DNA of 64,000 nucleotides from Bacteroidaceae bacterium. GTDB lineage: Bacteria; Bacteroidota; Bacteroidia; Bacteroidales; Bacteroidaceae. The notes below the pieces were generated by a model. The model did not search any database. It was not told the DNA's origin and saw only the letters and a program-made list of their open reading frames with translations. The stretch lies in the NCBI GenBank assembly GCA_045220575.1, contig JBGUVX010000032.1, positions 4,055 through 68,054 of the forward strand. Reading direction: 5' to 3'. A program made the translations under genes and the position numbers. Below, one piece after another: positions 4,759 to 63,993 of this stretch (position 1 is the first letter of the stretch; every line of letters begins with the position of its first letter).

Positions 4759-4803
4759 AGAACTTATCTTCTTAGTGCAGGGTTCAACATTCCGTTATCA
4801 CTC

Positions 4804-8969: not shown

Positions 8970-9000
8970 ATTCAATGTGTTTTTTGGTACGTAGCGGTCA

Positions 9001-9008
9001 CAAATCTA
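9001..9008 (-). promoter_or_regulatory. -7 box TAGATTTG for the six-gene operon
   Basis: The reverse complement of CAAATCTA matches the Bacteroidota TAnnTTTG consensus. It lies 32 nt upstream of the ATG at 8969. Confidence 0.55.
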
Positions 9009-9035
9009 ATAAATAATCATGGAATAGCGTGCATG

Positions 9036-15441: not shown

Positions 15442-15539
15442 TAAAGTTTAAAGTTTATGGTTTAGAGTTTAGAGGCTTGGTTTTTCAATTTTCACTTCTC
15501 ACTTCTCAATCTTCAATTTTCAATCTTCAATTATTTAAT
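15442..15539. repeat. Heptamer-phased tract (14 words)
   Basis: TAAAGTT TAAAGTT TATGGTT TAGAGTT TAGAGGC TTGGTTT TTCAATT TTCACTT CTCACTT CTCAATC TTCAATT TTCAATC TTCAATT ATTTAAT. It fills the spacer between the stop at 15531 and the fumarate hydratase start at 15438. Confidence 0.85.
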
Positions 15540-15956: not shown

Positions 15957-15990
15957 TTAATTAAAAATTAAAAATTAAAAATTAAAAATT
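15957..15990. repeat. (AAAAATT)x4 heptamer tract
   Basis: TTAATT then four perfect AAAAATT units, located between divergent -7 boxes. Confidence 0.9.
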
Positions 15991-28227: not shown

Positions 28228-28319
28228 AGTGCCATAGTATGAAACTACCCAGTGCCATAGTATGGTACCAAGTAGTGCCATAGTATGGAACAGCCCAGTA
28301 CCATAGTATGGCACTTTTG
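28228..28319. repeat. Four 23-bp phased units with the palindromic core GTGCCATAGTATGG(C/T)AC
   Basis: AGTGCCATAGTATG starts at 28228, 28251 and 28274; AGTACCATAGTATG starts at 28297. The next unit contains ACGACGTGTTGC (28323-28334) and a GCGAAGC-TAC-GCTTCGC hairpin. Confidence 0.9.
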
Positions 28320-28413
28320 GGAACGACGTGTTGCTATAAGCGAAGCTACGCTTCGCATAACGGTTCGGCACAAAATAAGTTGAAAGACGGAAGCCGAAAT
28401 AGAAAGTTTTTTG

Positions 28414-28427: not shown

Positions 28428-29351
28428 ATGAGGACGAGAATCGTTTACAACAACGCCGTGCCTGCTGCCATCCTGCGGCGCTACGAGCAATACCTGAGAC
28501 TGGAGAAATCGTTCTCCGTCAACACGCTCGACGCCTACCTTCGCGACCTGCAGAAGCTCATCAACTTCTATGCACAGCGAGGCATCGACTTCCGCACAGT
28601 TACCCTTCAGCAAATCGACCAGTTTGCCGGCACGCTGCTCGACAGCGGAGTGACGCAGAAGACCATCGCCCGCATCCTGGCTGGCGTGCGTTCGTTCTAC
28701 AAGTTCCTGCTGTTGGAAAAGGAGATAGAGACCGACCCTACGGAGCTGTTGCCTTTTCCCAAGCGAGGTCTCTATCTACCAGAGGTGCTTTCCCTCGATG
28801 AAATCGACCGAATTGAGAAAATCATAGACATTTCGAAGGAGGAGGGCGTGCGCGACCGTGCCATCGTGGAAACGCTGTACAGCTGTGGGTTGCGCGTGTC
28901 GGAGCTTTGCAACCTCACCTTCTCGAACCTGTTTCTGGAGGAAGGCTACATCCACGTGCGCGGCAAGGGTAACAAGGACCGCCTCGTACCCATCTCACAG
29001 ACCGCCATCGACGAACTGCGACGCTGGTTCGTCACACGGCAGGGCATCAACGTGAAGCCGGGCGAGGAGGATTTTGTCTTCATCACAAAGCGAGGCAGTC
29101 GCATGAGTCGCATCACCGTCTTCCACAACATCAAGCAATACGCCCAGGCGGCAGGCATCCAGAAAGAAATCTCGCCCCACACCTTCCGACACTCCTTTGC
29201 CACCCACCTGCTGGAACGCGGCGCAAACCTGAGCGGCGTGCGAGCCATGCTGGGGCACGAAAACATCTCAACAACAGAAATTTACCTACATCTCAACCGT
29301 CAACACCTGCGCGAGGAAATCCTCACCTGCCACCCCCGTAACAAGAAATAA
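28428..29351 (+). CDS. xerD: Tyrosine site-specific recombinase XerD
   Basis: 307 aa with SAM-like N-domain motifs (NTLDAYLRDL). The catalytic region has ...GLRVSEL..., HTFRHSFATHLLERGANL, LGHENISTTEIYLH. Confidence 0.88.
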   Translation: MRTRIVYNNAVPAAILRRYEQYLRLEKSFSVNTLDAYLRDLQKLINFYAQRGIDFRTVTLQQIDQFAGTLLDSGVTQKTIARILAGVRSFYKFLLLEKEIETDPTELLPFPKRGLYLPEVLSLDEIDRIEKIIDISKEEGVRDRAIVETLYSCGLRVSELCNLTFSNLFLEEGYIHVRGKGNKDRLVPISQTAIDELRRWFVTRQGINVKPGEEDFVFITKRGSRMSRITVFHNIKQYAQAAGIQKEISPHTFRHSFATHLLERGANLSGVRAMLGHENISTTEIYLHLNRQHLREEILTCHPRNKK

Positions 29352-31000: not shown

Positions 31001-31049
31001 AATAATTCTTAATTCTTAATTCTTAATTCTCAATTTATTTGTATTTTTG
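31001..31049. repeat. Heptamer tract (CTTAATT words)
   Basis: AATAATT CTTAATT CTTAATT CTTAATT CTCAATT TATTTGT ATTTTTG. The last word overlaps the VTC -7 box. Confidence 0.85.
31042..31049 (+). promoter_or_regulatory. -7 box TATTTTTG for the VTC cluster
   Basis: Perfect TAnnTTTG, 10 nt before the ATG at 31060. Confidence 0.5.
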
Positions 31050-32589: not shown

Positions 32590-32635
32590 TTAAGAGTTAA
32601 GAGTTAAGAGTTAAGAATTAAAAGATAAATAAAGA
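32587..32635. repeat. Heptamer tract (GAGTTAA words), inverted relative to 31001-31049
   Basis: TAATTAA GAGTTAA GAGTTAA GAGTTAA GAATTAA AAGATAA ATAAAGA. It spans exactly from the DUF4956 stop to the next ATG. Confidence 0.85.
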
Positions 32636-35153: not shown

Positions 35154-35406
35154 GTGTGTAGGGGATTCTGGTGAGCCGATTTTAGAGGGGAAAACAAGAG
35201 AAATTACGCTGGTACACAAAATTGTGGACCACAAACTTGTGTACTTCTCCTCATTGGTCCCATAAGCCCCCTTAGGCCCCTCCCGACCTCGCCCGTCGTA
35301 CCCTCCTTCGCGACACGTCGCATCCCATCACGCGATACTATCCCTGTGGCTGATGCATTACTATCGCGTCGCCCCTGAAAAACGTACACTCACGGAAAAA
35401 CCTCCC

Positions 35407-35452
35407 AACCTCCCCCAGAGCCGATGAATAAAGGGCTCGCGAGGGGGAGGTT
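35407..35452. repeat. G-run hairpin H1 (perfect 10-bp stem AACCTCCCCC / GGGGGAGGTT)
   Basis: The loop contains GCCGATGAATAAAGGG and the stem is followed by TTTATTTG. Related to H2 at 35608-35664. Confidence 0.75.
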
Positions 35453-35607
35453 TATTTGTAAAGGTCACCCAGACCTCACCTAAACCTCCCCGCTTTGATT
35501 TGATTGCTCCAAAGTGTAAATCATTGATTTTCAATTACCCCGTTTTTGATATAGTCCTTAATCGGAGGGGAGGTTTGGGGGACTTTTGGGTGAGGTTTGG
35601 AGGCAAA

Positions 35608-35664
35608 CCTCACCGCCTCCAGCCCCGATAAATAAAGGGAAGGGGGAGGTGAGGAGGTGTTTTT
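35608..35664. repeat. G-run hairpin H2 (CCTCACC...GGTGAGG), related to H1
   Basis: The loop contains CCCCGATAAATAAAGGG and the stem is followed by GTGTTTTT. Confidence 0.65.
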
Positions 35665-35892
35665 AAAGTTTTGACTAAATGTCAAAACGGCCCGACGAAG
35701 GGAGCCATAACTCCTATGGCGATGGAGGGATGTGAGGTTTCCTGCAGAATTCCCTCATTTTTGCAACAACCGTCAACCTATTGCAGGGTTAAAAGGTGAG
35801 AGTCAATCTATATAAGTTTTAATGTTTAACCGAGTCAACTAATCTTAGGGTTTAGACATACTGACAGTCAACCCTAATCAGGAAACGTCATT

Positions 35893-35951
35893 TTTGCAAA
35901 AATCCTGCGATTCTCTTTCGGCTGTGAAAATCTTTTCGTAATTTAGCAGCC
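35893..35951 (+). repeat. 59-bp direct repeat, copy 1
   Basis: TTTGCAAAAATCCTGCGATTCTCTTTCGGCTGTGAAAATCTTTTCGTAATTTAGCAGCC. 57/59 identical to 37094-37152. Confidence 0.9.
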
Positions 35952-36036
35952 AAGTACCCGCTAATTTTCGTGTCACATGGAGAGTAGCCATAAGGAAGAA
36001 AAGGAGTAAACAAGAAAAAACAACAACTATAGATAT

Positions 36037-36084
36037 ATGAGCAACAAAGAACCCGGCTACGTTTACATTCTTGAAAATAATTGA
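36037..36084 (+). pseudogene. Possible 15-codon remnant of a GIY-YIG-type nuclease gene
   Basis: ATG at 36037 gives MSNKEPGYVYILENN then a stop. KPGYVYIL.N is the usual N-terminal GIY block. It is too short to be functional. Confidence 0.3.
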
Positions 36085-36085
36085 T

Positions 36086-36093
36086 TATCTTTG
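36086..36093 (+). promoter_or_regulatory. -7 box TATCTTTG for dinD
   Basis: Perfect TAnnTTTG, 53 nt before the ATG at 36147. Confidence 0.55.
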
Positions 36094-36146
36094 CACCAAT
36101 AACAAGTAATCAGCAGAGTCGTCCCTGTAATTCAACATATAGGAAT

Positions 36147-37004
36147 ATGGATATACAGAAAATACAAGAATACAAATCAGCCTTTGACTTGATAGCAAAG
36201 AATATCAAGGATGAAGAAGGTAATACTATTGAAGTATGGTACGCCCGCGAGCTGCAACAAGTGTTAGGCTATTCCAGATGGGAGAATTTTGTCGTAGCCA
36301 TTGGTCGTGCAATGGAATCATGTAAAACACTGGGAATCAACATTGACGATCATTTTCGTGAGGTCACGAAAATGATAGCGTTGGCAAAGGGTGCTCAGCG
36401 TGATATTCAGGACTTCATGCTCACCAGATATGCCTGCTATCTGATAGCTCAGAATGGTGACCCGAAGAAGGAAGAGATTGCTTTTGCTCAAAGTTATTTT
36501 GCCGTGCAGACTCGCAAGGCAGAACTCATAGAGGAGCGTTTGAATGAGTTTGCCCGCCTCAATACCCGTGAGCGTTTACGTGCATCGGAGAAACAACTTA
36601 GTCGCAATATTTATGAGCGTGGAGTGGATGACAAAGGCTTTGGCCGTATCCGTTCCAAAGGCGATTGTGCCCTGTTCGGCGGACTCTCTACAGAGCAGAT
36701 GAAGAAGCGGTTGGGCATCAAAAGCGGTGCTTTGGCCGACTATTTGCCGACGCTCACCATCGCTGCCAAGAATCTGGCGACGGAGATGACCAACTACAAT
36801 GTGGAACAGAAGGACCTCTATGGCGAGGCCAACATTACTGCCGAGCATGTTCAGAACAACCGTAGTGTTCGTAGTATGCTGGGCCAGCGAGGCATCAAGC
36901 CTGAGAACCTCCCACCTGCTGAGGACATCAAGAAGGTAGAAAGGCGTGTAGCCAAAGATGAAAAGAGTATGCAGAAAGATACACCAAAATTACCTAAGAA
37001 ATGA
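36147..37004 (+). CDS. dinD: DNA damage-inducible protein D homologue
   Basis: Aligns by eye with E. coli DinD (ARELQQVLGYSRWENF, IDDHFRE, LTRYACYLIAQNGDPKK, SYFAVQTRKAEL). The track start at 36081 is TTG; ATG at 36147. Confidence 0.85.
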   Translation: MDIQKIQEYKSAFDLIAKNIKDEEGNTIEVWYARELQQVLGYSRWENFVVAIGRAMESCKTLGINIDDHFREVTKMIALAKGAQRDIQDFMLTRYACYLIAQNGDPKKEEIAFAQSYFAVQTRKAELIEERLNEFARLNTRERLRASEKQLSRNIYERGVDDKGFGRIRSKGDCALFGGLSTEQMKKRLGIKSGALADYLPTLTIAAKNLATEMTNYNVEQKDLYGEANITAEHVQNNRSVRSMLGQRGIKPENLPPAEDIKKVERRVAKDEKSMQKDTPKLPKK

Positions 37005-37093
37005 GAAGGCCTAATATTTACGATTGCACTTTTATATGCTCCTATGACATTATAATATTTGGACTATACCGAAGTGCTTGAAGTCCACGAGGC

Positions 37094-37152
37094 TTTGCAA
37101 AAATCCTGCGAATCTCTTTCGGCTGTGAAAAACTTTTCGTAATTTAGCAGCC
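37094..37152 (+). repeat. 59-bp direct repeat, copy 2
   Basis: TTTGCAAAAATCCTGCGAATCTCTTTCGGCTGTGAAAAACTTTTCGTAATTTAGCAGCC. It lies 1201 bp downstream of copy 1. Confidence 0.9.
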
Positions 37153-37375
37153 GTAACAACCAAAATTGACTGCCAATGGAATAATATATTGATGTAAGGA
37201 CATACAGACAGAAGCGTCCGCTTAGATTCTTGTTCTACAAATTCGCCAAAATTTCAAGAACTATCAAGAGTAAAGGCACGGATGCTCACGCCGATGGCGT
37301 GGGCTTTTACTCGGATATGATAGTTGGGTGTTTGGCGATACCTGTAGAGCGTAGACGAATGAAGTCCACGTCTTT

Positions 37376-37383
37376 TATATTTG
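37376..37383 (+). promoter_or_regulatory. -7 box TATATTTG for 37429-39467
   Basis: Perfect TAnnTTTG, 45 nt before the ATG at 37429. Confidence 0.5.
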
Positions 37384-37428
37384 TATACAATACATCTCTT
37401 CCAAATAAGATTCTAAATCTTTAAAGCA

Positions 37429-37839
37429 ATGAAGAAAAAGTTACTTCTTTTATTATTTTCAACAATATCTCCTTTAGCTGGTATAGGCCAATGTAGTATT
37501 CTTACAATATGGCAAACAGGCAAACCAGCAGTGGAATTCGCTTTCGAGAACAAACCGCGAATTACTTACCAAGCAGAGACGATGCTTCTCAAGGCCAATA
37601 ACATTCAAGTTGAATATCCTCTTAAAGAAATAGAGAGAATTACATTCAATGGAGCACAGCAGGATGCAATCAGTTTTCTATATGTTAAAGCTAAATCAGG
37701 AGGGACCAGCGTGTACTCTATGGATGGGCAACTCATCCAAACTATTGACCAGGAAAGACAACTGAACTTAGACGCGCTTCCCAAGGGTGTCTATGTCATT
37801 GAACGCAATGGCGTAACATTTAAATTGCTGAAGAAATGA
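37429..37839 (+). CDS. Small secreted protein with a T9SS-like tail (paralogue of 33491-33847)
   Basis: 136 aa. Signal peptide, N-terminal beta module, tail SVYSMDGQLIQ...LPKGVYVIERNGVTFKLLKK. AT-rich codon usage. Confidence 0.65.
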   Translation: MKKKLLLLLFSTISPLAGIGQCSILTIWQTGKPAVEFAFENKPRITYQAETMLLKANNIQVEYPLKEIERITFNGAQQDAISFLYVKAKSGGTSVYSMDGQLIQTIDQERQLNLDALPKGVYVIERNGVTFKLLKK

Positions 37840-39467
37840 GAACGATTTACACTTACGCACTTTTGTTTGCACTGTCAGCGACGTTGAGGATAGAAGCACA
37901 GACCATTCAGGTTTATCGCAAAAACCTTGGATTAGAACAATACATGTCTTCAAAGGTTGATTCGATTTTATCATTCTATGATGGTATAGAATACTTTCAC
38001 GAGATAAGGCAAGGCGAGAACAGCGAAACAATATATGTCAATGATATTGATAGTATCATCTGCACTTCTGAGGGGAATCAACAGGTCACAGGTCCAACTG
38101 TAGGACGTTTCCTTGCTGATTGTTTGGAAAATCCGATCTCAGGATACCAAGTCTGGGCAAAGCTAACACAGGCTACAGGATTCAAGGATTCTCTAAACGC
38201 CACCTCACAAAATTCATGGGAATCCCGATTTACCCTCTTCGCTGAACCTGACACCTGCTGGGAAAAGATATTGAGTAAACCTGCAGCGGACATAACTGTT
38301 GAAGATATTAAAGGATACATCCTTCAGGTAGATAATTCATTGGATGGAACCAATGATAATGAATACACAAACGATTCAAATGTTGTTCATCAGTTTGTGG
38401 CATACCATATTCTACCCGTGCAGCTCTCTCCTTATCAACTGGTCGTGCATGCAAACGAATATGCTTACGACATAAATCGCCCTGGAAAGTTAACCATCCC
38501 CGTGATGGATTATTACCAGACAATGAATAGTCGTCTACTGAAAGTGTATGAATCAGCTGAGAGTAATGGCATATACCTGAACAGATTCCCTGTCCTTGAC
38601 AATTCACGTCATGGAACTGGGCATGAAATTTCATGTTCCCAAGAATATATTGGTGTGAGGGTTCAAAAGGACAATGCCATATTGAACCTGACTAATGGCA
38701 TCATCTATCCTATCGAAGGTTTACTCTTGTATGATACAAAAACAAAGCATTCATTAGCAGACAGTCGTTTACGCTTTGATGCTATTACCCTGTTCCCAGA
38801 ATTATTGAATCTCGGTATACGTCGAAAATGCTCAAAAGAAGAAGCAGACCAAAATGTTTCAATACCCGTTGATACAATATTCCAAGGTTCTGACAATCTT
38901 GAAGCGAACGATGAAACTTCACTTGTATATTTCAATGGATATAAAGAAAACTATTGTTATTATCAAGGCGATGTCCTTAACTTCAATGGCGATTCTTATA
39001 ATATAGTTATTAAACTCCCACCAATTCCTGCAACGGGAACATATCAATTTAGAATAGGTTCAACCTTAGCAGATGATAGGAGCTTATATCAGTTATATTT
39101 CGGAGAAGATAAAAACATGTTGATGCCTATGGGAATTCCTCAAGATTGGCGTACAAGGATGATTGAATCCTCTGGTTGGAAGGAAGATACAAATGATGAT
39201 GAGACAAATGCACTACATGATAAAAATATGCGAAACTTAGGATTTTGCAAAGGACCTTTCAGCTACGGAGGTGAAGGCTATGAGTCAGCACGTAATAATC
39301 CCAAAAGTTTAAGAAATATTGGTTTCATCCAAAAAATGGAAGTGGATAAATCCTATTACATCCGCATTAAAAATGTATGGCAGGGAAATGGCATCTTCCT
39401 CGATTATATTGAATTAGTTCCTGAATCGATATATAATAATCCCAATATAGAAGAAGACATTTGGTGA
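37836..39467 (+). CDS. Secreted hypothetical protein (543 aa)
   Basis: Signal peptide. ATGA overlap with the upstream small gene. AT-rich. FVAYHILP is faintly FAS1-like, but I am not confident of any family. Confidence 0.65.
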   Translation: MRTIYTYALLFALSATLRIEAQTIQVYRKNLGLEQYMSSKVDSILSFYDGIEYFHEIRQGENSETIYVNDIDSIICTSEGNQQVTGPTVGRFLADCLENPISGYQVWAKLTQATGFKDSLNATSQNSWESRFTLFAEPDTCWEKILSKPAADITVEDIKGYILQVDNSLDGTNDNEYTNDSNVVHQFVAYHILPVQLSPYQLVVHANEYAYDINRPGKLTIPVMDYYQTMNSRLLKVYESAESNGIYLNRFPVLDNSRHGTGHEISCSQEYIGVRVQKDNAILNLTNGIIYPIEGLLLYDTKTKHSLADSRLRFDAITLFPELLNLGIRRKCSKEEADQNVSIPVDTIFQGSDNLEANDETSLVYFNGYKENYCYYQGDVLNFNGDSYNIVIKLPPIPATGTYQFRIGSTLADDRSLYQLYFGEDKNMLMPMGIPQDWRTRMIESSGWKEDTNDDETNALHDKNMRNLGFCKGPFSYGGEGYESARNNPKSLRNIGFIQKMEVDKSYYIRIKNVWQGNGIFLDYIELVPESIYNNPNIEEDIW

Positions 39468-39667
39468 ACTGCATCAACGAACATGAGAGTCATAGGGACG
39501 GCTTCGCTAACCTTATGAGGGCATTTACGAATAGAAAAACCGCATTTGTCACTCAGTTAGGTGGCAGGTGCGGTAGAACGCGAAAGGGCAGATAAAAGGG
39601 CAGATAAACAAATATATAAAAGGAGATTAACATCCCGAACCACAAACTATCGACTATTGGAAAGAAA

Positions 39668-39709
39668 CACCGCACTTGTCACTCATCGTGGCAGGTGCGG
39701 TTTGGTTTT
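39668..39709. terminator. Strong hairpin terminator between convergent genes
   Basis: CACCGCACTTGTCAC-TCATC-GTGGCAGGTGCGGT (about 14 bp including G-U pairs) followed by TTTGGTTTT. A related hairpin lies at 39539-39574. Confidence 0.75.
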
Positions 39710-39872
39710 GTGGTGAAGCAGGGGCGGTTAGAAGGCGCGTTCGGCCCAGTCGCTACGGTCGAGGTTGCGGTAGCCGATGGCTTCGGCGATGTGGTGGGAT
39801 TGCAGGTATTCACATCCTATGTTCCGATGGCGGACTGCCTTGGCACGATGATGGGGTGATGTCTGCGAAGGG

Positions 39873-47412: not shown

Positions 47413-48284
47413 TAACCGTAAAGCTCCTTTTCGCGCATGGAGAGGAAGTGGCTGACGCTGATGAAGGTGCAGAGCAGCGTCAAAAGCAATCCGCAGCCCA
47501 AGACTGCCAAAGCCGTAATGATGACATTCTCCTGCGTAACATAGGCCTGCATAACAGGGTCGTAGTTCCACAGCGCACGGATGCCTCCGAGCAAGACGGC
47601 ATCGGCCAACACGCTTGCAGCCAGTCCTATCCACAAGGCACGCAGCATGAAGGGACGTCGGATGAATCCCCAACTGGCACCCACGAGCTTCATGGTGTGT
47701 ATGATGAAGCGACGCGAATAGACCGACAGGCGCACGGTATTGTTGATGAGCACCAGCGTAACGAGCAACAGCAGAATCGCAATGCCCAGCAGTACGTAGG
47801 TCACTTTACGCAGGTTGCTGTTCAGTCGCTCTATCAGTTCCTTCTGGTATATGACGTCCGTCACCAGTTTGTTGCTCTTCAGGCGCTTGCTTATCCACAG
47901 CAGGCTGTCGGTGCAGGCATAGTCAGCTACGAGGTACAGTTCCAGCGAGGGGGTGAAAGGGTTCACTCCTCCCAGGAAGTCTGTTGGATCGGTGCCCAAG
48001 GCTTCGGTCTGCTCTTCGAGAGCCTGTTCGCGGCTGATGAAGGTGATGTCCTTCACCCAGGGACGTTTCTCAAGCTTTGCCTTGTAGTCGAGCGCATCCT
48101 GATTCGAGGCGTCGTCGCCCATCATCACCATGACGGTCAGGCTTTCCCTCACACTCTCGCTCAACTGTCGGGCGGTGAGGGCACAAATGACAACCAGCCC
48201 CATCAGTATGAGCACAAAGGTCGTACTGATGGTGCTGGTGAGGGCCTGCCAACGCAGGGATATCTTCTTTCTTTTTCTTGGCAT
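47412..48284 (-). CDS. ftsX: FtsX-like cell-division permease
   Basis: 290 aa with 4 TM helices and a periplasmic loop; FtsX topology. Confidence 0.8.
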   Translation of the reverse strand: MPRKRKKISLRWQALTSTISTTFVLILMGLVVICALTARQLSESVRESLTVMVMMGDDASNQDALDYKAKLEKRPWVKDITFISREQALEEQTEALGTDPTDFLGGVNPFTPSLELYLVADYACTDSLLWISKRLKSNKLVTDVIYQKELIERLNSNLRKVTYVLLGIAILLLLVTLVLINNTVRLSVYSRRFIIHTMKLVGASWGFIRRPFMLRALWIGLAASVLADAVLLGGIRALWNYDPVMQAYVTQENVIITALAVLGCGLLLTLLCTFISVSHFLSMREKELYG

Positions 48285-48291
48285 TACACAG

Positions 48292-48326
48292 CGCTTAGTT
48301 CTTCACTTCTATTTCTTAATCCTTCA
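48292..48326. repeat. Heptamer tract (CTT words)
   Basis: CGCTTAG TTCTTCA CTTCTAT TTCTTAA TCCTTCA. It overlaps the stop of the CoA-transferase gene. Confidence 0.65.
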
Positions 48327-49830
48327 AATACTCAGCCCAGTCGGTCAAGCGCATATCACCTTTGCGCAGGAAGGTATCGTGCATGGCAAAGGCAGCGCTG
48401 AGGCAGTGGTGAGTGTGACCACCCGTCTTCTCGGCATACTTCAGGTAGTCCATCAGCATGGGGCGATAGTCGGGATGAGCCACCTTGATGAGTTCGAGGC
48501 TCTTCTGCATGTCGCTCTTGTGACGCAGGTCAGCCACGCCGTATTCCGTAATCACGGCATTGACAAAGTGGTTGGTGTGGTCGATGTGGCTGGCGAAGGG
48601 CACGATGCTCGAAATGGCACCACCCTTGGTGGTAGAGCCGCAGGTGAAGATAGAGAGGTAGGCATTATTCGTGAAGTCGGCGCTTCCACCGATGCCGTTC
48701 ATCATCTTCGTACCGCAAATCTTGGTGGAGTTGACGTGTCCATAGAGGTCAACCTCGATAGCAGTGTTCAGCGAGCAAACGCCGATGCGTGCAATGACTT
48801 CGGGATTGTTGGAGATTTCGGAGGGACGCAGCACCAGCTTGTCCTTAAAGAAGTCCATATCACGATAGATGCCCTTCATGCACTCGTTTGTGACGGTGAG
48901 CGAGCAGGCAGAGGCAGAGAGCACGCGGCCCTCGCGCATCAATTCGATGGGAGCATCCTGCAGCACCTCGGTGTAGATGTTGAAGTTGGGCACCTCGGGG
49001 CACTGTCCCAGTGCGCCCAGCACGGCGTTTGCACCACTGCCCACACCGCTCTGCAGGTTCAGGAATGTGGGAGGAATCTTGCCTGCCTTCATGTTTGCCA
49101 GCAGGAAGTCGGCTACGTTCTGACCAATCTGTGTGGTGATGGGGTCGGCATCCTTGAACGAACGGGCCTCATCGGGGATATTGCCCTCTACAACGCCTAC
49201 GATGCGGTCGGCATCCACCTCGATATAGGGTTTACCGATGCGGTCGCTGGGCTTCATAATCATGATGGGCTTACGGTAGGGATGGTCCTCTATCTCGTAA
49301 ACGTCGTGAATGCCCATTCCGCTACGCTCGTGGAAGGCGTTCAGCTCGATGATGATGCCCTCGGTGGCCAGTCGGCAGACAGTGGGGGCGATACCGCCGG
49401 CAGCAGTCAGGTAGATGTGTGCCTTGTTGCCAACCTTCTCGATAGCGCAAGCCTCGATAATAGCCCAGTTGACAGGGCCAAGATAGCCTTGGCGAATCTG
49501 CGTGGCCATGTTCGAGAGGTTCAGGTCGCTATAGTTCAGCTCGTTCAGGTTCACGTGTTTACGGAAGTCAGGGTTCGTAGTGTAGGGGGCGCGGAAGTCG
49601 ATTGCCTGTGCGTTCGACATAGCACCGTCGCAGCTCTGACCCGTAGAGGCTCCCGTAAAGATGTTTACCTTGTAGGGGCGTCCGGCAGCATGTTCTGCCT
49701 CTGCCAGCTTAGCAATCTCGGCAGTAGTCATCTTGGCTGTGCCGGCAGGTGTGAATCCACTCAATCCGATGGTCTGACCATTCTTTACCAACGCTGCAGC
49801 TTCGGCAGCGGTAATTTTATTGAAATCCAT
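48316..49830 (-). CDS. Acetyl-CoA hydrolase/transferase family protein (succinate/acetate CoA-transferase type)
   Basis: 504 aa. GLSGFTPAG, SGVGSGANAVL, and the EVDLYGHVNST...NGIGGSADF blocks. Confidence 0.88.
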   Translation of the reverse strand: MDFNKITAAEAAALVKNGQTIGLSGFTPAGTAKMTTAEIAKLAEAEHAAGRPYKVNIFTGASTGQSCDGAMSNAQAIDFRAPYTTNPDFRKHVNLNELNYSDLNLSNMATQIRQGYLGPVNWAIIEACAIEKVGNKAHIYLTAAGGIAPTVCRLATEGIIIELNAFHERSGMGIHDVYEIEDHPYRKPIMIMKPSDRIGKPYIEVDADRIVGVVEGNIPDEARSFKDADPITTQIGQNVADFLLANMKAGKIPPTFLNLQSGVGSGANAVLGALGQCPEVPNFNIYTEVLQDAPIELMREGRVLSASACSLTVTNECMKGIYRDMDFFKDKLVLRPSEISNNPEVIARIGVCSLNTAIEVDLYGHVNSTKICGTKMMNGIGGSADFTNNAYLSIFTCGSTTKGGAISSIVPFASHIDHTNHFVNAVITEYGVADLRHKSDMQKSLELIKVAHPDYRPMLMDYLKYAEKTGGHTHHCLSAAFAMHDTFLRKGDMRLTDWAEYLKD

Positions 49831-49863
49831 ATTGTTTTAGTTTTGATTTTGGTTTAGCGCGTG

Positions 49864-49871
49864 CAAAGATA
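49864..49871 (-). promoter_or_regulatory. -7 box TATCTTTG for the CoA-transferase gene
   Basis: Reverse complement of CAAAGATA; 34 nt upstream of the ATG at 49830. Confidence 0.55.
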
Positions 49872-49875
49872 CAAT

Positions 49876-49920
49876 AATTTAATTAAAAATTAAAATATTG
49901 AAAATTAAAATTTGATTTGA
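49876..49920. repeat. Heptamer tract (TTAAAAA words)
   Basis: ...TTAAAAA TTAAAAT ATTGAAA ATTAAAA TTTGATT TGA. It lies between the pyrH stop and the CoA-transferase promoter. Confidence 0.75.
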
Positions 49921-49924
49921 GGGC

Positions 49925-50635
49925 TCAATTATGCACGAGCGTACCTATTTCCTCGCCTGCCATCACCTTCTTCAGGTTGCCGACGATGTCCATGTTGAAG
50001 ACGTAGATGGGCAGGTCGTTCATCTTACACATGGTAGTGGCTGTCAGGTCCATCACCTTCAGACCGCGGTTGTAAATTTCGTCGTAGGTGATTTCCTTGA
50101 ACTTCGTAGCCGTGGGGTCTTTCTCCGGGTCGGCGGTATAAACGCCATCTACACGTGTTCCCTTCAGCATCACGTCGGCCTCAATCTCTATGCCGCGAAG
50201 CGAAGAGCCCGTGTCGGTAGTGAAGTAGGGATTGCCTGTCCCGCCACTCATGATGACCACCTCGCCGCGCTCCATTGCCTCGATGGCCTTCCATTTAGTG
50301 TACAGCTCGCCGATGGGTTCCATGCGGATAGCCGTCAGCACCGTCGTCTTTTGTCCGATGGCTTGCAGGGCACTGCACAGGCCCAGCGAGTTGATGACGG
50401 TTGCCAGCATTCCCATCTGGTCGCCCCTGACGCGGTCGAAGCCCTTGCCGGCTCCAGTCAGACCGCGGAAGATGTTTCCGCCTCCGATGACGATTCCCAC
50501 CTGGACACCCATGTCCACTACTTCCTTAATCTGACGTGCATAGTCGTTCAGACGGTTCACGTCGATGCCATAACCCTGTTCTCCCTGCAGGCTCTCGCCC
50601 GAGAGCTTCAGCAGAATTCTCTTAAACTTTGCCAT
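49925..50635 (-). CDS. pyrH: UMP kinase
   Basis: 236 aa. RILLKLSGE, VIGGGNIFRG, TGNPYFTTD. Confidence 0.96.
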   Translation of the reverse strand: MAKFKRILLKLSGESLQGEQGYGIDVNRLNDYARQIKEVVDMGVQVGIVIGGGNIFRGLTGAGKGFDRVRGDQMGMLATVINSLGLCSALQAIGQKTTVLTAIRMEPIGELYTKWKAIEAMERGEVVIMSGGTGNPYFTTDTGSSLRGIEIEADVMLKGTRVDGVYTADPEKDPTATKFKEITYDEIYNRGLKVMDLTATTMCKMNDLPIYVFNMDIVGNLKKVMAGEEIGTLVHN

Positions 50636-50677
50636 AATATCTTAATTCTTAACTCTTAATTTTTAATTCTTAATTTG
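50636..50677. repeat. Heptamer tract (TAATTCT words), inverted relative to 49876-49920
   Basis: AATATCT TAATTCT TAACTCT TAATTTT TAATTCT TAATTTG. It encodes the birA C-terminal KLRIKN plus stop, and the whole birA-pyrH spacer. Confidence 0.85.
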
Positions 50678-51891
50678 TATTCCACTTCCTTAAAGCCATA
50701 GCTTCGTTTTCTGCCCGTTTCATCGACAATTATCAGGTGCCCCGCAGGCTCCACATCCACGATGGTGCCCACGAACTCCCCATCCTTGTCGCGAAACGTA
50801 TGCTTCTCGCCGCGACGATAGAGTTGATCGAGGTACATCTCGTGCAGTTCGTCCAACCGCCCCTGTTCCGTCCACTCGTAGTAGTGGGTAAAGTTCTCCA
50901 CCACCCTTTCAAGGACGAAGCGACGTTCCACCTCCTCGCCCACAATCTGTACCAACGACACAGGTTCTGCCATTCGTCGCAGGCCGTCCTGTTGGGTTCT
51001 GTCGAATGTGAACTCCGTCTGGTTAATGTTGATGCCCACGCCCATCACCGAGCGCTCTATCCTGTCGCCCCTCAGTTCGTTCTCGATGAGCATTCCACAT
51101 ATCTTCCTGTCGCCCCAATAAATATCGTTGGGCCACTTGATTTGAAGCCCCCCACCATCTCCCCCCATAATGGGGGAGGGTTGCAAAGCCACTTGAAGAG
51201 TACGACACACGTTTTGTGTATTACCAATTATTTCTTCGTTCGTGAAACGTATAACTCTGAACCCCATACGTTGTAGCGAGGCTGTTCTATCGGCATCACA
51301 TTCCTTTTGCTCCGAGTGTTTATGGTAGCCACCATCTATTTCAACTATCAAGTTGTGCTGAAGGCATACGAAATCAACTATATAGTCTCCAATAATATGT
51401 TGTCTTCTGAAGGAAACCCCCAGATTTTTATTTTTTAATATTTCCCACATAGCATTCTCTGCCTCTGTGGGATATTGTCTGTTTTCTTTTGCGAATTCCT
51501 TCAGCAGTTTGTATCTGTCTGGCGAGGCTGTCTTATAGGCATCACGTCCATTACTGCGGGCAAAGTCCCCCCTCATGGGGGGATTTAGGGAGGCCTGGAT
51601 GGCGAGGGAAAGGACCTCGCTGAGGACGAACATGCGGTCGGCAGGGATGTGGCGAGGGTGCAGGAGCAAGCTGAACAGCAGGTTCTGCCCAGGCTGCGAC
51701 TCCCACCGGTTGCTGCCCGCCCCGCGACCAGCCGTCTGGTATTCCGCCGTCACCAGCGTCAAGCGTCGCTCCGGCCCCACAGGGCGGTAGTTGCGCAGGA
51801 AGTCGTTCGTGCTCGTCACCTCCCCCAGCTCCACCATACGGAACTCGGGCGAGTCGTCCAGACAAAAATGTCTATCCAATTTATAGTCCAT
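50656..51891 (-). CDS. birA: Biotin--[acetyl-CoA-carboxylase] ligase interrupted in frame by a ~145-aa DUF559 endonuclease cassette
   Basis: Starts at the ATG at 51891 (MDYKL), downstream of the -7 box at 51929-51936. BirA blocks are TAEYQTAGRGAGSNRWES and, after the insert, IKWPNDIYWGDRKICGMLIE, GVGININ. One uninterrupted reading frame runs through the insert. Confidence 0.85.
   Translation of the reverse strand: MDYKLDRHFCLDDSPEFRMVELGEVTSTNDFLRNYRPVGPERRLTLVTAEYQTAGRGAGSNRWESQPGQNLLFSLLLHPRHIPADRMFVLSEVLSLAIQASLNPPMRGDFARSNGRDAYKTASPDRYKLLKEFAKENRQYPTEAENAMWEILKNKNLGVSFRRQHIIGDYIVDFVCLQHNLIVEIDGGYHKHSEQKECDADRTASLQRMGFRVIRFTNEEIIGNTQNVCRTLQVALQPSPIMGGDGGGLQIKWPNDIYWGDRKICGMLIENELRGDRIERSVMGVGININQTEFTFDRTQQDGLRRMAEPVSLVQIVGEEVERRFVLERVVENFTHYYEWTEQGRLDELHEMYLDQLYRRGEKHTFRDKDGEFVGTIVDVEPAGHLIIVDETGRKRSYGFKEVEYKLRIKN
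51147..51593 (-). mobile_element. Palindrome-bounded DUF559 (Vsr-like PD-(D/E)xK endonuclease) cassette inserted in frame in birA
   Basis: The encoded segment PPMRGD...YPTEAENAMWEILKNKNLGVSFRRQHIIGDYIVDFVCLQHNLIVEIDGGYH...RMGFRVIRFTNEEI...SPIMGGDGGGLQ matches DUF559 as I recall it. Its boundaries are CCCCCCTCATGGGGGG (51567-51582) and CCCCCATAATGGGGG (51162-51176). The interior is visibly AT-rich compared with birA. Confidence 0.75.
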
Positions 51892-51928
51892 AACCTGATG
51901 GCAACGCGATGCCGATATCAAAACCACA

Positions 51929-51936
51929 CAAAGATA
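51929..51936 (-). promoter_or_regulatory. -7 box TATCTTTG for birA
   Basis: Reverse complement of CAAAGATA; 38 nt upstream of the ATG at 51891. It lies inside the longer track ORF, which argues for the shorter start. Confidence 0.55.
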
Positions 51937-52017
51937 GAAAATATTTGCGAATTGTGCATTATGAATCCCGCTTTATTTATGGATTAGGTCTTAATCAACG
52001 TGAGTTCTTGGACAAGG

Positions 52018-52237
52018 CGACGTGTTGTTAACGATAAGACGACGTGTCGTATCCTTCGAAGCGACGTGTCGTTAGTTTAAAAGGATAATTATCCGACATC
52101 GATAGGATAATTATCCGATGGCATTAACATAATTATCCGTTTGTGATAGGATAATTATCCTGTTTTGAAAAGATAATTGCACGAGTAAAGCAACGATACG
52201 TCGCTTGGAGGCAAACAACGTGTCGCTCCGCCTGTTT
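52018..52237. repeat. Ten contiguous 22-bp phased units: 3x CGACGTGT(C/T)G, 5x (G)GATAATTATCC-type, 2x ACGT(G)TCGC-type
   Basis: Units start at 52018, 52040, 52062, 52084, 52106, 52128, 52150, 52172, 52194 and 52216. The perfect 12-bp palindrome GGATAATTATCC occurs at 52083, 52105 and 52149, with degenerate copies at 52127 and 52171. Confidence 0.9.
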
Positions 52238-52410
52238 TTTCCCGTTGAGTTTGGCGGAAGGAACGGAATACATTCCATACACTTCTTGCAGATGGGAAAA
52301 GGGGAACAAAAGGTTAGTAGATAGGGAGAGTTTTTGGTCGTTTGGCTTTTTATTTGTAATTTTAGCGCGAAATAAACGATATTGCCCATAAAAACATAGA
52401 AGAAAGTCTC

Positions 52411-56966
<4,556 letters not shown>

Positions 56967-56968
56967 GC

Positions 56969-57649
56969 ATGAAAGTTATAGTATCGAAGGAAATAGAACA
57001 GGTGTGCCCCGATTTCGTGGGGGCCTGCGTGGAGGCACAAGTGGTGAATTCGCCCTATTGTCAGGAGCTTTGGCAAGAGATAGAGGTGTTGGGCGAGCGC
57101 TTCCGCAGCGAACTGACAACGGAGTCGCTGAAAGACATAGCCAGCATTGCCGCCACCCGCAGGGTATACAAGGCCTGCGGCAAGGACCCCTCGCGCTACC
57201 GGCCCGCCTCAGAGGCACTGATACGGCGCGTGCTGCAAGGCAAGGAACTCTATCAGCGCGACACGCTGGTGGACTTGGTGAATCTGGCCTCCATAGCCTA
57301 TGGTTACAGCATCGGAGGCTTCGATGCCGACCGCTTCGTGGGCGACACGCTGACGCTGGGCATCGGACGCGAAGGCGAACCCTATGAGGGCATCGGACGG
57401 GGTATGCTGAACATCGAGGGACTGCCCGTCTATCGCGATGCCATGGGCGGAGTGGGTACTCCCACCAGCGACAACGAGCGAACGAAAATGACGCTCGACA
57501 CCACACATCTGGTGGTGCTAATCAACGGATACGACGGCAACGAACAGCGCGTCCGTGAGAATGCCGAATACATCCAGCAGCTTCTTCGCAGGTATTGCCA
57601 AAGCGACGGGGGAAGTTATGAAGTGTACAGAAGCCCCTCTTCTAATTAA
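56969..57649 (+). CDS. B3/B4 tRNA-binding-domain protein (PheT-related)
   Basis: Re-called from the ATG at 56969 (MKVIVSKEI). The track ORF from 56750 would overlap the GH2 gene. RRVYKACGKDPSRYRPASEAL and LVDLVN are typical of the family. Confidence 0.75.
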   Translation: MKVIVSKEIEQVCPDFVGACVEAQVVNSPYCQELWQEIEVLGERFRSELTTESLKDIASIAATRRVYKACGKDPSRYRPASEALIRRVLQGKELYQRDTLVDLVNLASIAYGYSIGGFDADRFVGDTLTLGIGREGEPYEGIGRGMLNIEGLPVYRDAMGGVGTPTSDNERTKMTLDTTHLVVLINGYDGNEQRVRENAEYIQQLLRRYCQSDGGSYEVYRSPSSN

Positions 57650-59701: not shown

Positions 59702-60415
59702 TTATTTGCTGAGGAATCTTGTATCGAGAAAAGAGCGGAAGGCATCTTTGTAGAGATCGCCGATGGGCAGGCGGGTGTTGGCATCCAAGATAACGCGGTT
59801 CTTGTCGACCTCCTGTATCTTGTTGAGGTTGACGATATATGAACGGTGGATACGCATGAAGCCGTCGGGCAGGTACTCTTCCATCTTCTTCATCGACAGC
59901 AGGGTGACGATGGGTTTCGGCTCGCCTTCCAGCCAGACCTTCAGATACTCGCTCATGCTCTCGACATAGCGGATGTCGCGGACAGAGACCTTGACGATGC
60001 GTGAATCGGCCTTCAGGAAAATATCGGAACCATCCCCCTCCCCACGCTGTGACGGCTGGGGGGAGAGCCTTTCCCTCAACCGATTTGCCGCCCGCTGGAA
60101 GTCCTGCAGGCCAAAGGGCTTCAGCAGATAATCGACAGCATTCACGCGAAAACCCTCGACAGCGTACTCCGAGTAGGCCGTGGTGAAGACAACGAGGGGC
60201 GGCGAGGCGAGCGACTTCACGAAGTCCATGCCGTTGAGGTCGGGCATGTTGATGTCGCAGAAGATGGCATCGACTGTGTCGTGCTCCAGGAACGAACGGG
60301 CCTCTATGGCGCTCTGGCACTGAGCGGCGAGTTCGAGGAAAGGCACCTTGCTGATGTAGGTGACGAGTTGTCGGAGCGCCAACGGCTCATCGTCAATAGC
60401 CATGCAACGTATCAT
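59702..60415 (-). CDS. LytTR-family response regulator
   Basis: REC domain (MAIDDEPLAL...DINMPDLNG) plus a LytTR domain (IRYVESMSEYLKVWL...HRSYIVNLNKI). The linker LSPQPSQRGEGDGSD is encoded by a C-run/G-run inverted repeat. Confidence 0.9.
   Translation of the reverse strand: MIRCMAIDDEPLALRQLVTYISKVPFLELAAQCQSAIEARSFLEHDTVDAIFCDINMPDLNGMDFVKSLASPPLVVFTTAYSEYAVEGFRVNAVDYLLKPFGLQDFQRAANRLRERLSPQPSQRGEGDGSDIFLKADSRIVKVSVRDIRYVESMSEYLKVWLEGEPKPIVTLLSMKKMEEYLPDGFMRIHRSYIVNLNKIQEVDKNRVILDANTRLPIGDLYKDAFRSFLDTRFLSK
60033..60067. repeat. Solo C-run/G-run inverted repeat in the response-regulator linker
   Basis: TCCCCCTCCCC-N14-GGGGGGAGAG on the + strand. It is read in frame as LSPQPSQRGEGDG on the gene strand. 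Confidence 0.45.
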
Positions 60416-60427
60416 GCGGGTGAAGGA

Positions 60428-61561
60428 TTAAGGGTGGAGGGGAATGACAAGGTTTACGGTAAAGACGCTGGCCTCGTCGTGTATGCTGAGGGTGTAGTTG
60501 TTGCCGTAGAGCAGGTCGAGGCGCTTGCGGACGTTGACAAGCCCCACGCCGCCCTTCTCCTCGTTGGGTTTCTCTGCCTTCGAGTTGCGGCAACGGAACT
60601 GCAGCCTGCCGTCTTCGACAGCCACCTTCACCTCGATGAACGAATCGCGCTGATAGCTGACGCCGTGCTTGAAGGCGTTCTCGATGAAGGTGATGAGGAT
60701 GAGTGGTGGTATCTGGTAATTGGGCGCGTCCATAGGCAGTTCGAGGGTTATCTTCACCTTATCGGTATAGCGCAACTGCATCAGTGCGACATAGTGGCGG
60801 ATGAAATCCAGTTCCTGAGTGAGGGGTACACCTTGTTTGTTGCCCTCATAGAGCACGAAGCGCATCATCTTCGACAGTTCCACAATGGTTTCCTTCGCCT
60901 GTTCCGGGTCGATATCGACGAGGGCGTGGATGTTGTTGAGCGTGTTCATGAAGAAGTGTGGATTAATCTGATAGCGTAGGTACTCCAGCTGCTGCTCCAG
61001 ATTCTCGTGCTCCAACTGTGCCAGCCGCCTGCGGTCGTCGCGGCTACGGAAATAGCCCTTGATGCCCAGATTGGCGCCGAACATCAGTAGCAGCACCACT
61101 ATGGCCATAATGTCGTGCTCGCCGACTATTAGCGGCGGACGGCGGTCTTGTCCGAAACGCGGCGGTTCGGGTCGTTCAGGAAAGTCCGAATCGTGTGAGG
61201 GCTCATGAAACTCGGGTCGATTCATTTCGCGGGAGGGACGCCCGTCGGGTATCTGCGGTCGGCTGTTGCACTGATAGAGCGTGAAGGTGGCAACGATGAC
61301 AGCCATTACGGAAAAGTATGCCGCACGCTTGTGTTTGTGCACCAACAGCGGTGCCAGCAGGAAATTGTGGACGAGGAACAGCAGCAGGTAAATCGCGAAC
61401 TTACGCCACACGACGAACACCTCGAACCAGTCGAATACGGCATTGGCATCGCTGGCCATGCGCACATACAAACTCAGCAGCGGGGATGCAAAGAGCAAAC
61501 CCCACACTGCCAAGTATAGCATATTTTCCTGTCGCGACTGGTGTTTCATCAGATGTGTCAT
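60428..61561 (-). CDS. LytS/YehU-type sensor histidine kinase
   Basis: N-terminal TM helices, His_kinase block (LRYQINPHFFMNTLNNIHALV) and a HATPase_c-like C-terminus. Confidence 0.85.
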   Translation of the reverse strand: MTHLMKHQSRQENMLYLAVWGLLFASPLLSLYVRMASDANAVFDWFEVFVVWRKFAIYLLLFLVHNFLLAPLLVHKHKRAAYFSVMAVIVATFTLYQCNSRPQIPDGRPSREMNRPEFHEPSHDSDFPERPEPPRFGQDRRPPLIVGEHDIMAIVVLLLMFGANLGIKGYFRSRDDRRRLAQLEHENLEQQLEYLRYQINPHFFMNTLNNIHALVDIDPEQAKETIVELSKMMRFVLYEGNKQGVPLTQELDFIRHYVALMQLRYTDKVKITLELPMDAPNYQIPPLILITFIENAFKHGVSYQRDSFIEVKVAVEDGRLQFRCRNSKAEKPNEEKGGVGLVNVRKRLDLLYGNNYTLSIHDEASVFTVNLVIPLHP

Positions 61562-63619: not shown

Positions 63620-63993
63620 CTTACTACTATTTTATAGGTCTTTTCTTTTGTCTTCACGATGTACACACCATGAGGTAATTTACCATTTGACAATTTACTA
63701 TTTACAATTTTCTTTCCGCTGAGGTCGTAGATAGAATCGTCCGATTCTAAATCGTCCAATTGTCCAATTGTCTCAATACCCGTAGTCTCGTCGGCATCCG
63801 AGAAGTACATCTTGGCAAGGTTCACGAGGGTGAACGACTGCGAACCAGCCTTCAGCGTGGTCCCGCTGATGCTCAGCGACAGCGACTCAACAGGCACAGA
63901 CACCCGTGCCCCGTCCGTAGTCTCAAAGGTCAGGTAGGGAAAGCCCTCGGCATTTACCGCGATTGCTCCCACAGACATGAGCAACGTTAACAT
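63616..63993 (-). CDS. Small secreted protein with a T9SS-like tail (paralogue of 33491-33847)
   Basis: 125 aa. PYLTFETTDGARVSVPVESLSLSI...LAKMYFSD module; tail IYDLSGKKIVNSKLSNGKLPHGVYIVKTKEKTYKIVVR. The ATG lies 7 nt from the window end. Confidence 0.65.
   Translation of the reverse strand: MLTLLMSVGAIAVNAEGFPYLTFETTDGARVSVPVESLSLSISGTTLKAGSQSFTLVNLAKMYFSDADETTGIETIGQLDDLESDDSIYDLSGKKIVNSKLSNGKLPHGVYIVKTKEKTYKIVVR
63676..63717. repeat. Heptamer tract inside the T9SS tail of 63616-63993
   Basis: TAATTTA CCATTTG ACAATTT ACTATTT ACAATTT TCTTTCC. It encodes KIVNSKLSNGKLP on the minus strand. Confidence 0.7.

Follow-up and report, generated by a model that had tools for sequence, protein, structure and literature searches.

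A phased palindromic array between birA and a fucosidase operon

The 64,000-nucleotide stretch of contig JBGUVX010000032.1, from a rumen-type Bacteroidaceae genome, analysed here (the window) carries, between the divergent birA and GH29 fucosidase genes, an array of ten dyad-symmetric 12-bp cores. The cores span 52017-52226, and their centres run from 52022.5 to 52220.5 at a spacing of exactly 22.0 bp. Pfam searches bore out the flanking genes proposed in a first-pass annotation, which had been made from the sequence alone. To the right of the array lie the GH29 fucosidase gene, a GH2 gene, a B3_4-domain gene and a gene for a 678-aa protein; to the left, beyond birA, follow pyrH, an acetyl-CoA hydrolase gene, ftsX, bacA, truB and queA. 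The immediate surroundings of the array are as follows.

50656-51891, minus strand: birA, biotin-protein ligase with an inserted DUF559 domain (Pfam), the left divergent neighbour of the array
51929-51936, minus strand: probable birA -7 promoter box, TATCTTTG, read from the sequence, about 90 bp from the first unit
52335-52368, plus strand: right-hand promoter segment, about 110 bp from the last unit, resembling the birA/B3_4 spacer of the relative L115 in a side-by-side reading
52411-56966, plus strand: GH29 alpha-L-fucosidase and GH2 beta-galactosidase genes (Pfam), missing from relatives that have no array

The birA box fits TAnnTTTG, which we take to be the Bacteroidetes -7 consensus. The right-hand segment resembles a promoter that would now drive the GH29, GH2 and B3_4 genes. 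The flanks of the array are only moderately AT-rich.

Two core types alternate in blocks within the array. Those of the GCGACGTGTCGC type are called A and those of the GGATAATTATCC type B. Starting from 52018 in 22-nt steps, the units fall into three A, five B and two A. The A units had not been described as palindromes by the first-pass annotation, a point we can refine: the A core is itself a 5-2-5 palindrome, GCGAC-NN-GTCGC, written (G)CGACGTGTCG(C). Every unit pairs a conserved 12-bp core with 10 bp of variable spacer. The cores are listed below.

52017-52028: A unit 1, GCGACGTGTTGT, centre 52022.5
52039-52050: A unit 2, ACGACGTGTCGT, centre 52044.5
52061-52072: A unit 3, GCGACGTGTCGT, centre 52066.5
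52083-52094: B unit 1, GGATAATTATCC, perfect, centre 52088.5
52105-52116: B unit 2, GGATAATTATCC, perfect
52127-52138: B unit 3, ACATAATTATCC
52149-52160: B unit 4, GGATAATTATCC, perfect
52171-52182: B unit 5, AGATAATTGCAC, half-degenerate, centre 52176.5
52193-52204: A unit 4, ACGATACGTCGC, in phase, centre 52198.5
52215-52226: A unit 5, ACAACGTGTCGC, in phase, centre 52220.5

The outermost right unit is a mirror of the left-most one (GCGACRYGTTGTT; inverted repeat I8). The perfect B palindromes at 52083, 52105 and 52149, with degenerate copies at 52127 and 52171, lie where they had been placed before, and the 64 kb contain no other perfect copy of GGATAATTATCC. Matches to CGACGTGTCG with at most one mismatch number 17 in the window, against 4.5 expected, and five of these 17 are inside the array.

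The ten contiguous units and their 3/5/2 block order, as first proposed, were recovered from the sequence, and Tandem Repeats Finder called a period of 22. A repeat search likewise returned start-to-start spacings of 22, 22 and 22. Reading from 52017 at period 22, the ten phased 12-mers contain 42 complementary pairs out of a possible 60. A set of 1000 dinucleotide-shuffled sequences, each scored at its best period between 15 and 30, had a mean of 28.4 pairs (standard deviation 1.5) and a maximum of 35. The autocorrelation that had been suggested as a check gave an identity of 0.54 at lag 22 and 0.43 at lag 44, where background identity is about 0.25. Chance falls far short of explaining how regularly the array is phased and its dyad symmetry. 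At any period of 15-35 bp, at least three phased copies occur at a single further locus in the window. The exact 22.0-bp distance between centres corresponds to two helical turns per unit and agrees with the earlier proposal that all sites face the same side of the helix. The single strand of the array folds strongly (z = -6.0) because the palindromes are repeated. One solitary perfect A palindrome, GCGACACGTCGC, is found at 35310-35321 within a long non-coding stretch.

Constraint on the cores and restriction to one lineage

The PyrH protein is identical in eight public contigs. The array is present in L117, at 98.0 % nucleotide identity, and in L119, at 95-96 %; L117 holds ten units like the window, and L119 ends after the ninth unit, with the same units up to that point. 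It is absent from L115, L116 and L118 (about 81-83 % identity) and from L120, all of which also lack the GH29 and GH2 genes. In these four relatives birA is directly divergent from the B3_4 gene across a spacer of 95 bp, so that the B3_4 promoter immediately precedes its gene, and homology to the B3_4 coding sequence of the window picks up again at 56967. In L121-L124 the neighbour is a different one again, with a 72-bp spacer. The first-pass annotation had proposed absence from close relatives with identical gene order and regulation as a refutation. The array persists at 96-98 % identity; at about 81 % it is gone, and there the gene order differs too, GH29 and GH2 being missing.

By this comparison, the window lineage has acquired an array-bearing segment of about 0.4 kb that separates the two promoters, and it has acquired the GH29-GH2 pair as well. 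The two glycosidase genes sit between an L115-like B3_4 promoter segment and the B3_4 start (52335-56969), which makes a new GH29-GH2-B3_4 operon.

Within the lineage, the cores and spacers evolve at different rates. In a three-strain alignment of the window, L117 and L119, one of 130 birA-side flank positions varies, as do nine of 108 core and 21 of 85 spacer positions, so that cores change about three times less often than spacers (Fisher P = 0.002). The core changes fall mostly in edge units that are already degenerate, and units A2 and A3 (positions 2-11) are invariant in L117 and L119. Between the window and L117 the 125 bp from birA to the array are identical, while spacers differ by 13 % compared with 5-6 % at third codon positions of pyrH and birA. 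These divergences indicate that the cores are constrained and that the spacers evolve at least at the silent-site rate. The array is real, under selection and specific to one lineage, and it serves as a marker of recent remodelling of this promoter region. Fucosidase orthologues at 87 % identity occur in other contexts in which no array was seen upstream, which ruled out a regulatory element travelling with the fucosidase gene.

Recurrence of the arrangement and its link to HU-HIG genes

A second array lies elsewhere in the window, ahead of a gene for an XerC/D-like tyrosine recombinase (28428-29351).

28229-28334: second array, comprising four GTGCCATAGTATGGnAC units at 23 bp (28229-28314) and then an in-phase A-type core, ACGACGTGTTGC (28323-28334)

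Both arrays follow one plan, in which a locus-specific core is flanked in register by A-type sites. Two degenerate A-like sites were also noticed near the second array, at about 28193 and 28214.

The B core was then sought outside the window. When one genome from each of 185,579 species was scanned for a pair of B cores at 22-bp distance, the sole locus was L001, from a Bacteroidaceae metagenome-assembled genome (MAG) of roe-deer abomasum, and this locus is not homologous to the window. L001 has three CGGATAATTA(T/C)CC units at 22 bp, situated 150-205 bp upstream of an HU-HIG gene (4772-5239; 155 aa; PF18291, Pfam E = 1.8e-23). A relaxed scan of metagenomes gave 97 loci. The majority are unrelated arrays of 21-bp period that resemble plasmid iterons; the full B core at 22 bp occurred there only in L037/L112 (two units) and L038 (two units), in other contexts. 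The B core at a 22-bp period is thus found in three unrelated Bacteroidaceae loci: L001, L112/L037 and L038. As scattered single sites B cores were not seen in the loci compared, each core being confined to its own arrays. The spacer at 5900-6140 of L112 combines two B cores with four TTATCTTATGG-type units of 11-bp period and two AAATTATGTAATTTTATTT repeats, a stack of several kinds of phased repeat within a single promoter region; the gene that follows has a predicted product that reads like a DUF59-type Fe-S assembly protein.

The exact B pattern had no match in viral contigs, and a viral origin was rejected after the relaxed pattern gave just two chance pairs, both within coding sequence. 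A-type pairs in nine viral contigs were heterogeneous, with a coding heptapeptide repeat among them, and are uninformative here. Near the end of one 93-kb viral contig (IMGVR_UViG_3300047564_003078, L010) 3-4 CGACGTGTCG-type units at 22 bp stand at 490-570 and have the 14-mer CGACGTGTCGTTAG in common with window unit A3, possibly by coincidence. HU-HIG genes were not found in viral contigs in two pattern searches (with a pattern verified on L001 and L125). A literature search with the core sequences gave only coincidental matches, such as the fungal QA-1F site.

Phased arrays recur upstream of other HU-HIG genes. In L125, which had been fetched for its birA, four AAGACCWWGGTCTT palindromes spaced exactly 22 bp apart lie upstream of an HU-HIG gene. 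L137, encoding a protein (P0260) 77 % identical to that of L001, has 4-5 CTAATTGAACGATTG units at 22 bp just upstream of the promoter; in L135 (Phocaeicola) the HU-HIG start is preceded, at a distance of 60-165 bp, by 4-5 GGACGTACGTCC units spaced 22 bp; and L129 (Segatella) has four CCCTA(n)TAGGG units at 23-24 bp upstream of its HU-HIG gene. Weaker repeats of two or three units at 21-22 bp precede the HU-HIG genes of L128, L130 and L142. The set L128-L136, L142 and L143 consists of HU-HIG genes located by tblastn in PLSDB records. Each HU-HIG-linked array carries its own distinct core.

To quantify the association, about 230 kb of Bacteroidales DNA were scanned with fixed settings: three 9-mers with no more than one mismatch, at any period from 18 to 26. 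The arrays returned had periods of 22 and 23 only, and five of the six outside the window lie directly upstream of HU-HIG genes. Among the 13 upstream windows of HU-HIG genes that had not been found through an array, four contain one, against 0.07 expected (Poisson P = 9e-7). The window array has the geometry of this class, namely at least three palindromic cores of 11-15 bp at a period of 22-24 bp, and the same geometry is seen in L001, L125, L129, L135 and L137. Within about 250 bp downstream of the window array there is no HU-HIG gene, and the B core of the array is identical to that of the L001 array. On this comparison it would be an orphan copy of the HU-HIG-linked class proposed here.

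Two further observations concern the surroundings of HU-HIG genes. In L125 tandem repeats of about 60 bp (8790-9030) and about 45 bp (9860-10030), in 3-4 copies each, flank the HU-HIG gene. In L130, L131, L133, L142 and L143 (Bacteroides and Parabacteroides; PLSDB) the gene is part of a conserved cassette of helicase, DUF4248, HU-HIG, 'smalltalk' and amidase genes, in which the helicase gene is DUF3987, BT4734-family or DnaB, the DUF4248 gene is divergent and the amidase is an N-acetylmuramoyl-L-alanine amidase. The upstream spacers of this cassette subclade hold weak repeats or 10-11-bp repeats only.

A proposed platform for dimeric DNA-binding proteins and rival readings

The two-turn register, the dyad symmetry, the restriction of constraint to the cores and the recurrence in unrelated loci together argue for dimers bound along one face of the helix. 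Of the options raised by the first-pass annotation, a cooperative protein-binding array is the one that fits, given conserved cores among fast-evolving spacers and a core and period that recur in unrelated loci. We suggest that the ten operator-like palindromes would each be occupied by a dimer of a sequence-specific DNA-binding protein. With all sites on one face and two turns apiece, neighbouring dimers could touch and build an unbroken nucleoprotein block that separates the divergent promoters of birA and the GH29 operon. The array would combine two specificities in blocks, with five sites for each of A and B. The B sites may be bound by an orthologue of the L001 HU-HIG protein, whose gene in MAG RGIG3756 follows a GGATAATTATCC array, and the A sites by a second, more widely used HU-HIG paralogue. 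HU-HIG paralogues are the most economical candidates because arrays are enriched before HU-HIG genes and each array has its own core; one core per paralogue would also fit a family that diversifies rapidly and has many paralogues. By bending, insulating or titrating, the block would then have an architectural or regulatory effect on promoters about 90 bp and 110 bp away. That the array is a phased platform for dimeric proteins, possibly HU-HIG paralogues, which shapes both promoters is the account we prefer, tentatively and with confidence somewhat short of even.

Several points weigh against the HU-HIG part of this account or against its regulatory role. tblastn with two HU-HIG proteins found no HU-HIG gene in the 64-kb window, and because the window encodes none, its link to the family rests on core identity with L001. 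L001 was found through its array and so makes no independent case for that link. The HU-HIG upstream regions of L131, L132, L133, L134, L136 and L143 are without an array, and within the subclade linked to DUF4248 most HU-HIG genes are without a clear array (L131, L133, L143) or have just two or three weak repeats (L130, L142). The L137 protein, at 77 % identity to that of L001, has a very different upstream core. Differing cores at this level of identity are unusual for direct base readout and could mean that another protein is the binder, or that these promoters breed 22-bp duplications; when HU-HIG proteins that differ in core were aligned, their differences were scattered and revealed no clear specificity pattern. 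The distance of 90-130 bp between the array and the promoter boxes makes a simple operator role unlikely. Classical IHF wraps about 35 bp, which exceeds the 22-bp site spacing. HU-HIG proteins have been described as a rapidly diversifying, Bacteroidetes-specific family with many paralogues, an HU/IHF fold and no assigned function, and Burroughs et al. (2017, PMC5499826) argued from sequence evolution that a role as sequence-specific transcription factors is unlikely for them.

A broader proposal goes beyond the window. HU-HIG proteins may be sequence-specific binders, each paralogue recognising its own 11-15-bp palindrome in arrays of 22-23-bp period, in own-gene as well as orphan or composite settings, and forming one-face filaments that organise promoters. 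Arrays at their own genes would then reflect autoregulation, and the orphan arrays would include the ten-site A/B array and the BrickBuilt repeats of Porphyromonas gingivalis. We put this generalisation forward as a conjecture and consider it rather doubtful.

The array could instead be an ordinary cooperative operator or activator array for helix-turn-helix or LytTR-type factors that control the GH29-GH2-B3_4 genes, birA or both, with HU-HIG genes merely among the targets. It lies between two promoters, its cores are conserved relative to its spacers, and a B-core pair also precedes the DUF59-like Fe-S assembly gene of L112, as in a regulon. A candidate binder is at hand in the LytTR response regulator (59702-60415), which with a histidine kinase forms a pair at 59702-61561, 7.5 kb downstream. 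The earlier statement that no transcription factor gene is adjacent holds for the immediate neighbours, this pair lying farther off. LytTR sites are 9-10-bp repeats 12-13 bp apart, giving the family a period of 21-22 bp. They come, however, as pairs of direct repeats without palindromic symmetry, and the runs found here have five to ten palindromes. A transcription factor gene is adjacent in none of the window, L001, L112 and L038, the 87 %-identical fucosidase orthologues have no array upstream, and two specificities in one strict phase are unusual for independent regulators. A conventional regulator also leaves the own core of each HU-HIG gene unexplained. We regard it as a serious but on the whole unlikely possibility.

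A different reading is that no dedicated binder exists and that the array is selfish or structural tandem DNA, generated by 22-23-bp slippage, spread by a MITE (miniature inverted-repeat transposable element) and perhaps promoter-active, like BrickBuilt. BrickBuilt is a 23-nt intergenic tandem repeat of P. gingivalis with a conserved and a variable half, 19 copies per genome and promoter activity (Klein et al. 2015, PMC4596501). It has a leader and tail with IS5-like inverted ends and 1 to 23 units, changes in copy number between strains, and is read as a repeat-trapping MITE for which no binding protein has been proposed (PMC4596501). Both the C core (CATAGTAT) and the B3 core (CATAATTATCC) of the window are similar to the conserved half of BrickBuilt, CATARTATCC, the array is lineage-specific in a region with other insertions, and its strong single-strand folding (z = -6.0) is as predicted for BrickBuilt. 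On the other side, blastn-short found no leader, tail or terminal inverted repeat common to the two window arrays and the outside arrays, and the unit number is constant in three strains (in L119 up to the ninth unit), whereas BrickBuilt expands and contracts. Spacers have diverged while cores were kept, which speaks for selection on the cores, and two unrelated cores in one register are not a product of slippage alone. This explanation seems to us improbable. A MITE as such was ruled out by the lack of common flanks and target duplication, and a 54-nt inverted repeat is accounted for by the palindromic cores alone. Two likenesses to BrickBuilt were recorded separately: the second array core and the P. 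gingivalis brick have CATAGTAT in common, and the only short BrickBuilt element with neither leader nor tail (no. 14) is placed upstream of an HU-family gene, PGN_0872 (PMC4596501).

The first-pass annotation had also offered plasmid or phage iterons, a partition site or an origin, options that found no backing. As an iteron-type replication origin or the partition centromere of an integrated plasmid, phage or integrative and conjugative element, the array would have the right period and, with ten units, more than the three repeats that such an origin calls for, 22 bp being the classic iteron spacing of R6K and pPS10; many metagenomic GATAATTATC arrays at a 21-bp period do resemble plasmid iterons (for example L043 and L030). 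Yet Pfam scans covering most larger open reading frames of the 64 kb found no rep, par or mobility genes, the neighbours being housekeeping genes, and scans of the neighbours and most other large open reading frames found neither parA/parM nor parB/parR. A distinct AT-rich unwinding region was not seen, no DnaA box (TTATCCACA, at most one mismatch) occurs in 47899-54829, and the array region had no blastn match among 72,556 plasmid and 50,697 phage records. Chromosomal HU-HIG genes have equivalent arrays in their promoters. The iteron or centromere reading is highly improbable. We give still less weight to tandem duplication without function, by chance or neutral drift, or a chromosomal oriC, taken jointly. 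The genome is rich in short tandem repeats in spacers, and genes diverge from the array. Chance is excluded by the shuffle statistics and contradicted by the constraint on cores relative to spacers and by the same core and period in other genomes. As to oriC, there is no DnaA-box cluster, and the 95-bp spacer of the relatives is incompatible with a conserved origin; a GC-skew turning point was absent from the window, a weak test over only 64 kb. DnaA titration was also considered on account of TTATCC inside the B core and set aside, since the last three box positions are not conserved and DnaA boxes do not cluster.

Two other classes were rejected. An RNA element was dismissed after neither Rfam families nor tRNAs were found in the 64-kb window, and a 22-nt period cannot be coding. 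A CRISPR is excluded by a whole unit of 22 bp with 10-bp spacers, against repeats of 24-48 bp and unique spacers of about that length, and Pfam scans of neighbouring genes found no cas genes.

If dimeric HU-HIG proteins do occupy such phased platforms, this would be a new, Bacteroidales-specific system of protein-DNA recognition. Bacteroidales dominate gut and rumen communities, and their promoter architecture and nucleoid proteins are poorly understood. A reproducible cis-element before HU-HIG genes is a directly testable candidate target for a multi-copy family so far without function, and the B core common to an HU-HIG promoter and an orphan array provides a specific test case. It would also give a functional reading to BrickBuilt-type minisatellites, so far treated only as MITE cargo. 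Even with a conventional regulator as the binder, the array would be a clean natural case of two specificities in one strict helical register.

Other features of the region

Within BirA, a DUF559/Vsr-like endonuclease domain (aa ~142-248; Pfam E = 1e-32) sits inside the catalytic biotin-protein ligase domain. The insert is present in L117 and in a sister lineage, L125-L127 (71 % identity), and absent in close relatives (265-278 aa), the 96 %-identical L119 included. Its sequence suggests a mobile domain that has inserted into an essential enzyme.

AT-rich heptad tandem repeats occur in many short leaders directly 5' of start codons, at the following positions.

15445-15532: AT-rich heptad repeats
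15959-15990: AT-rich heptad repeats
31003-31035: AT-rich heptad repeats
32590-32621: AT-rich heptad repeats
49881-49910: AT-rich heptad repeats
50635-50675: AT-rich heptad repeats
63677-63710: AT-rich heptad repeats

The leaders of pyrH and frr both carry the heptad AGAATTA, in 5.7 and 4.7 copies respectively. The pyrH leader of relatives is still AT-rich and has short direct repeats of other sequence.

A low-GC island at 35235-39870 (GC 0.39-0.47) has probably been acquired. Its genes include one with a Bro-N domain (36081-37004) and others of unknown function, and ahead of it lie 0.85 kb of non-coding, repeat-rich DNA with GGGGAGGTTTG-type repeats and the perfect GCGACACGTCGC.

Comparison with known systems

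Iterated sites on one face of the helix are familiar from replication origins. The R6K gamma origin with its seven 22-bp repeats, pPS10 with four of that length and the lambda origin all use a period of about 22 bp, place their sites on one face and are bound cooperatively, and the O-protein iterons of lambda are dyad-symmetric like the units described here. The window array differs in having no initiator gene, unwinding element or DnaA box, and in its chromosomal position between housekeeping and glycosidase genes. Plasmid centromeres provide a second parallel, with blocks of iterated sites, two in number, at a promoter, as in parC of R1 (10 x 11 bp) and of pSK41 (20-bp repeats); on centromeres of the ParR/ParG type, ribbon-helix-helix dimers polymerise into a helical scaffold. 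In contrast to these type II and Ib centromeres, the array has no parM, parA or parR, differs in period and cores, and is not on a plasmid.

The LytTR sites of AgrA, ComE and YpdB share the 21-22-bp repeat period, and a LytTR gene lies in the wider neighbourhood of the array; they are direct pairs of 9-10-mers, whereas the array consists of palindromes in runs of five and three plus two. The HU-HIG family parallels the array cores in its many paralogues and fast evolution. It differs in that no DNA target has been described, its authors predict non-specific binding (PMC5499826) and the window encodes no member.

The closest described relative of the array is BrickBuilt of P. gingivalis. Both come from the same order, Bacteroidales, are strictly intergenic and near promoters, and have units of 22-23 nt with dyad symmetry and strong folding. 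BrickBuilt is built from one brick sequence, whereas the array joins two unrelated cores in one register and has no common flanks. The array is a new variant of phased binding-site arrays, with an unexpected link to HU-HIG genes.

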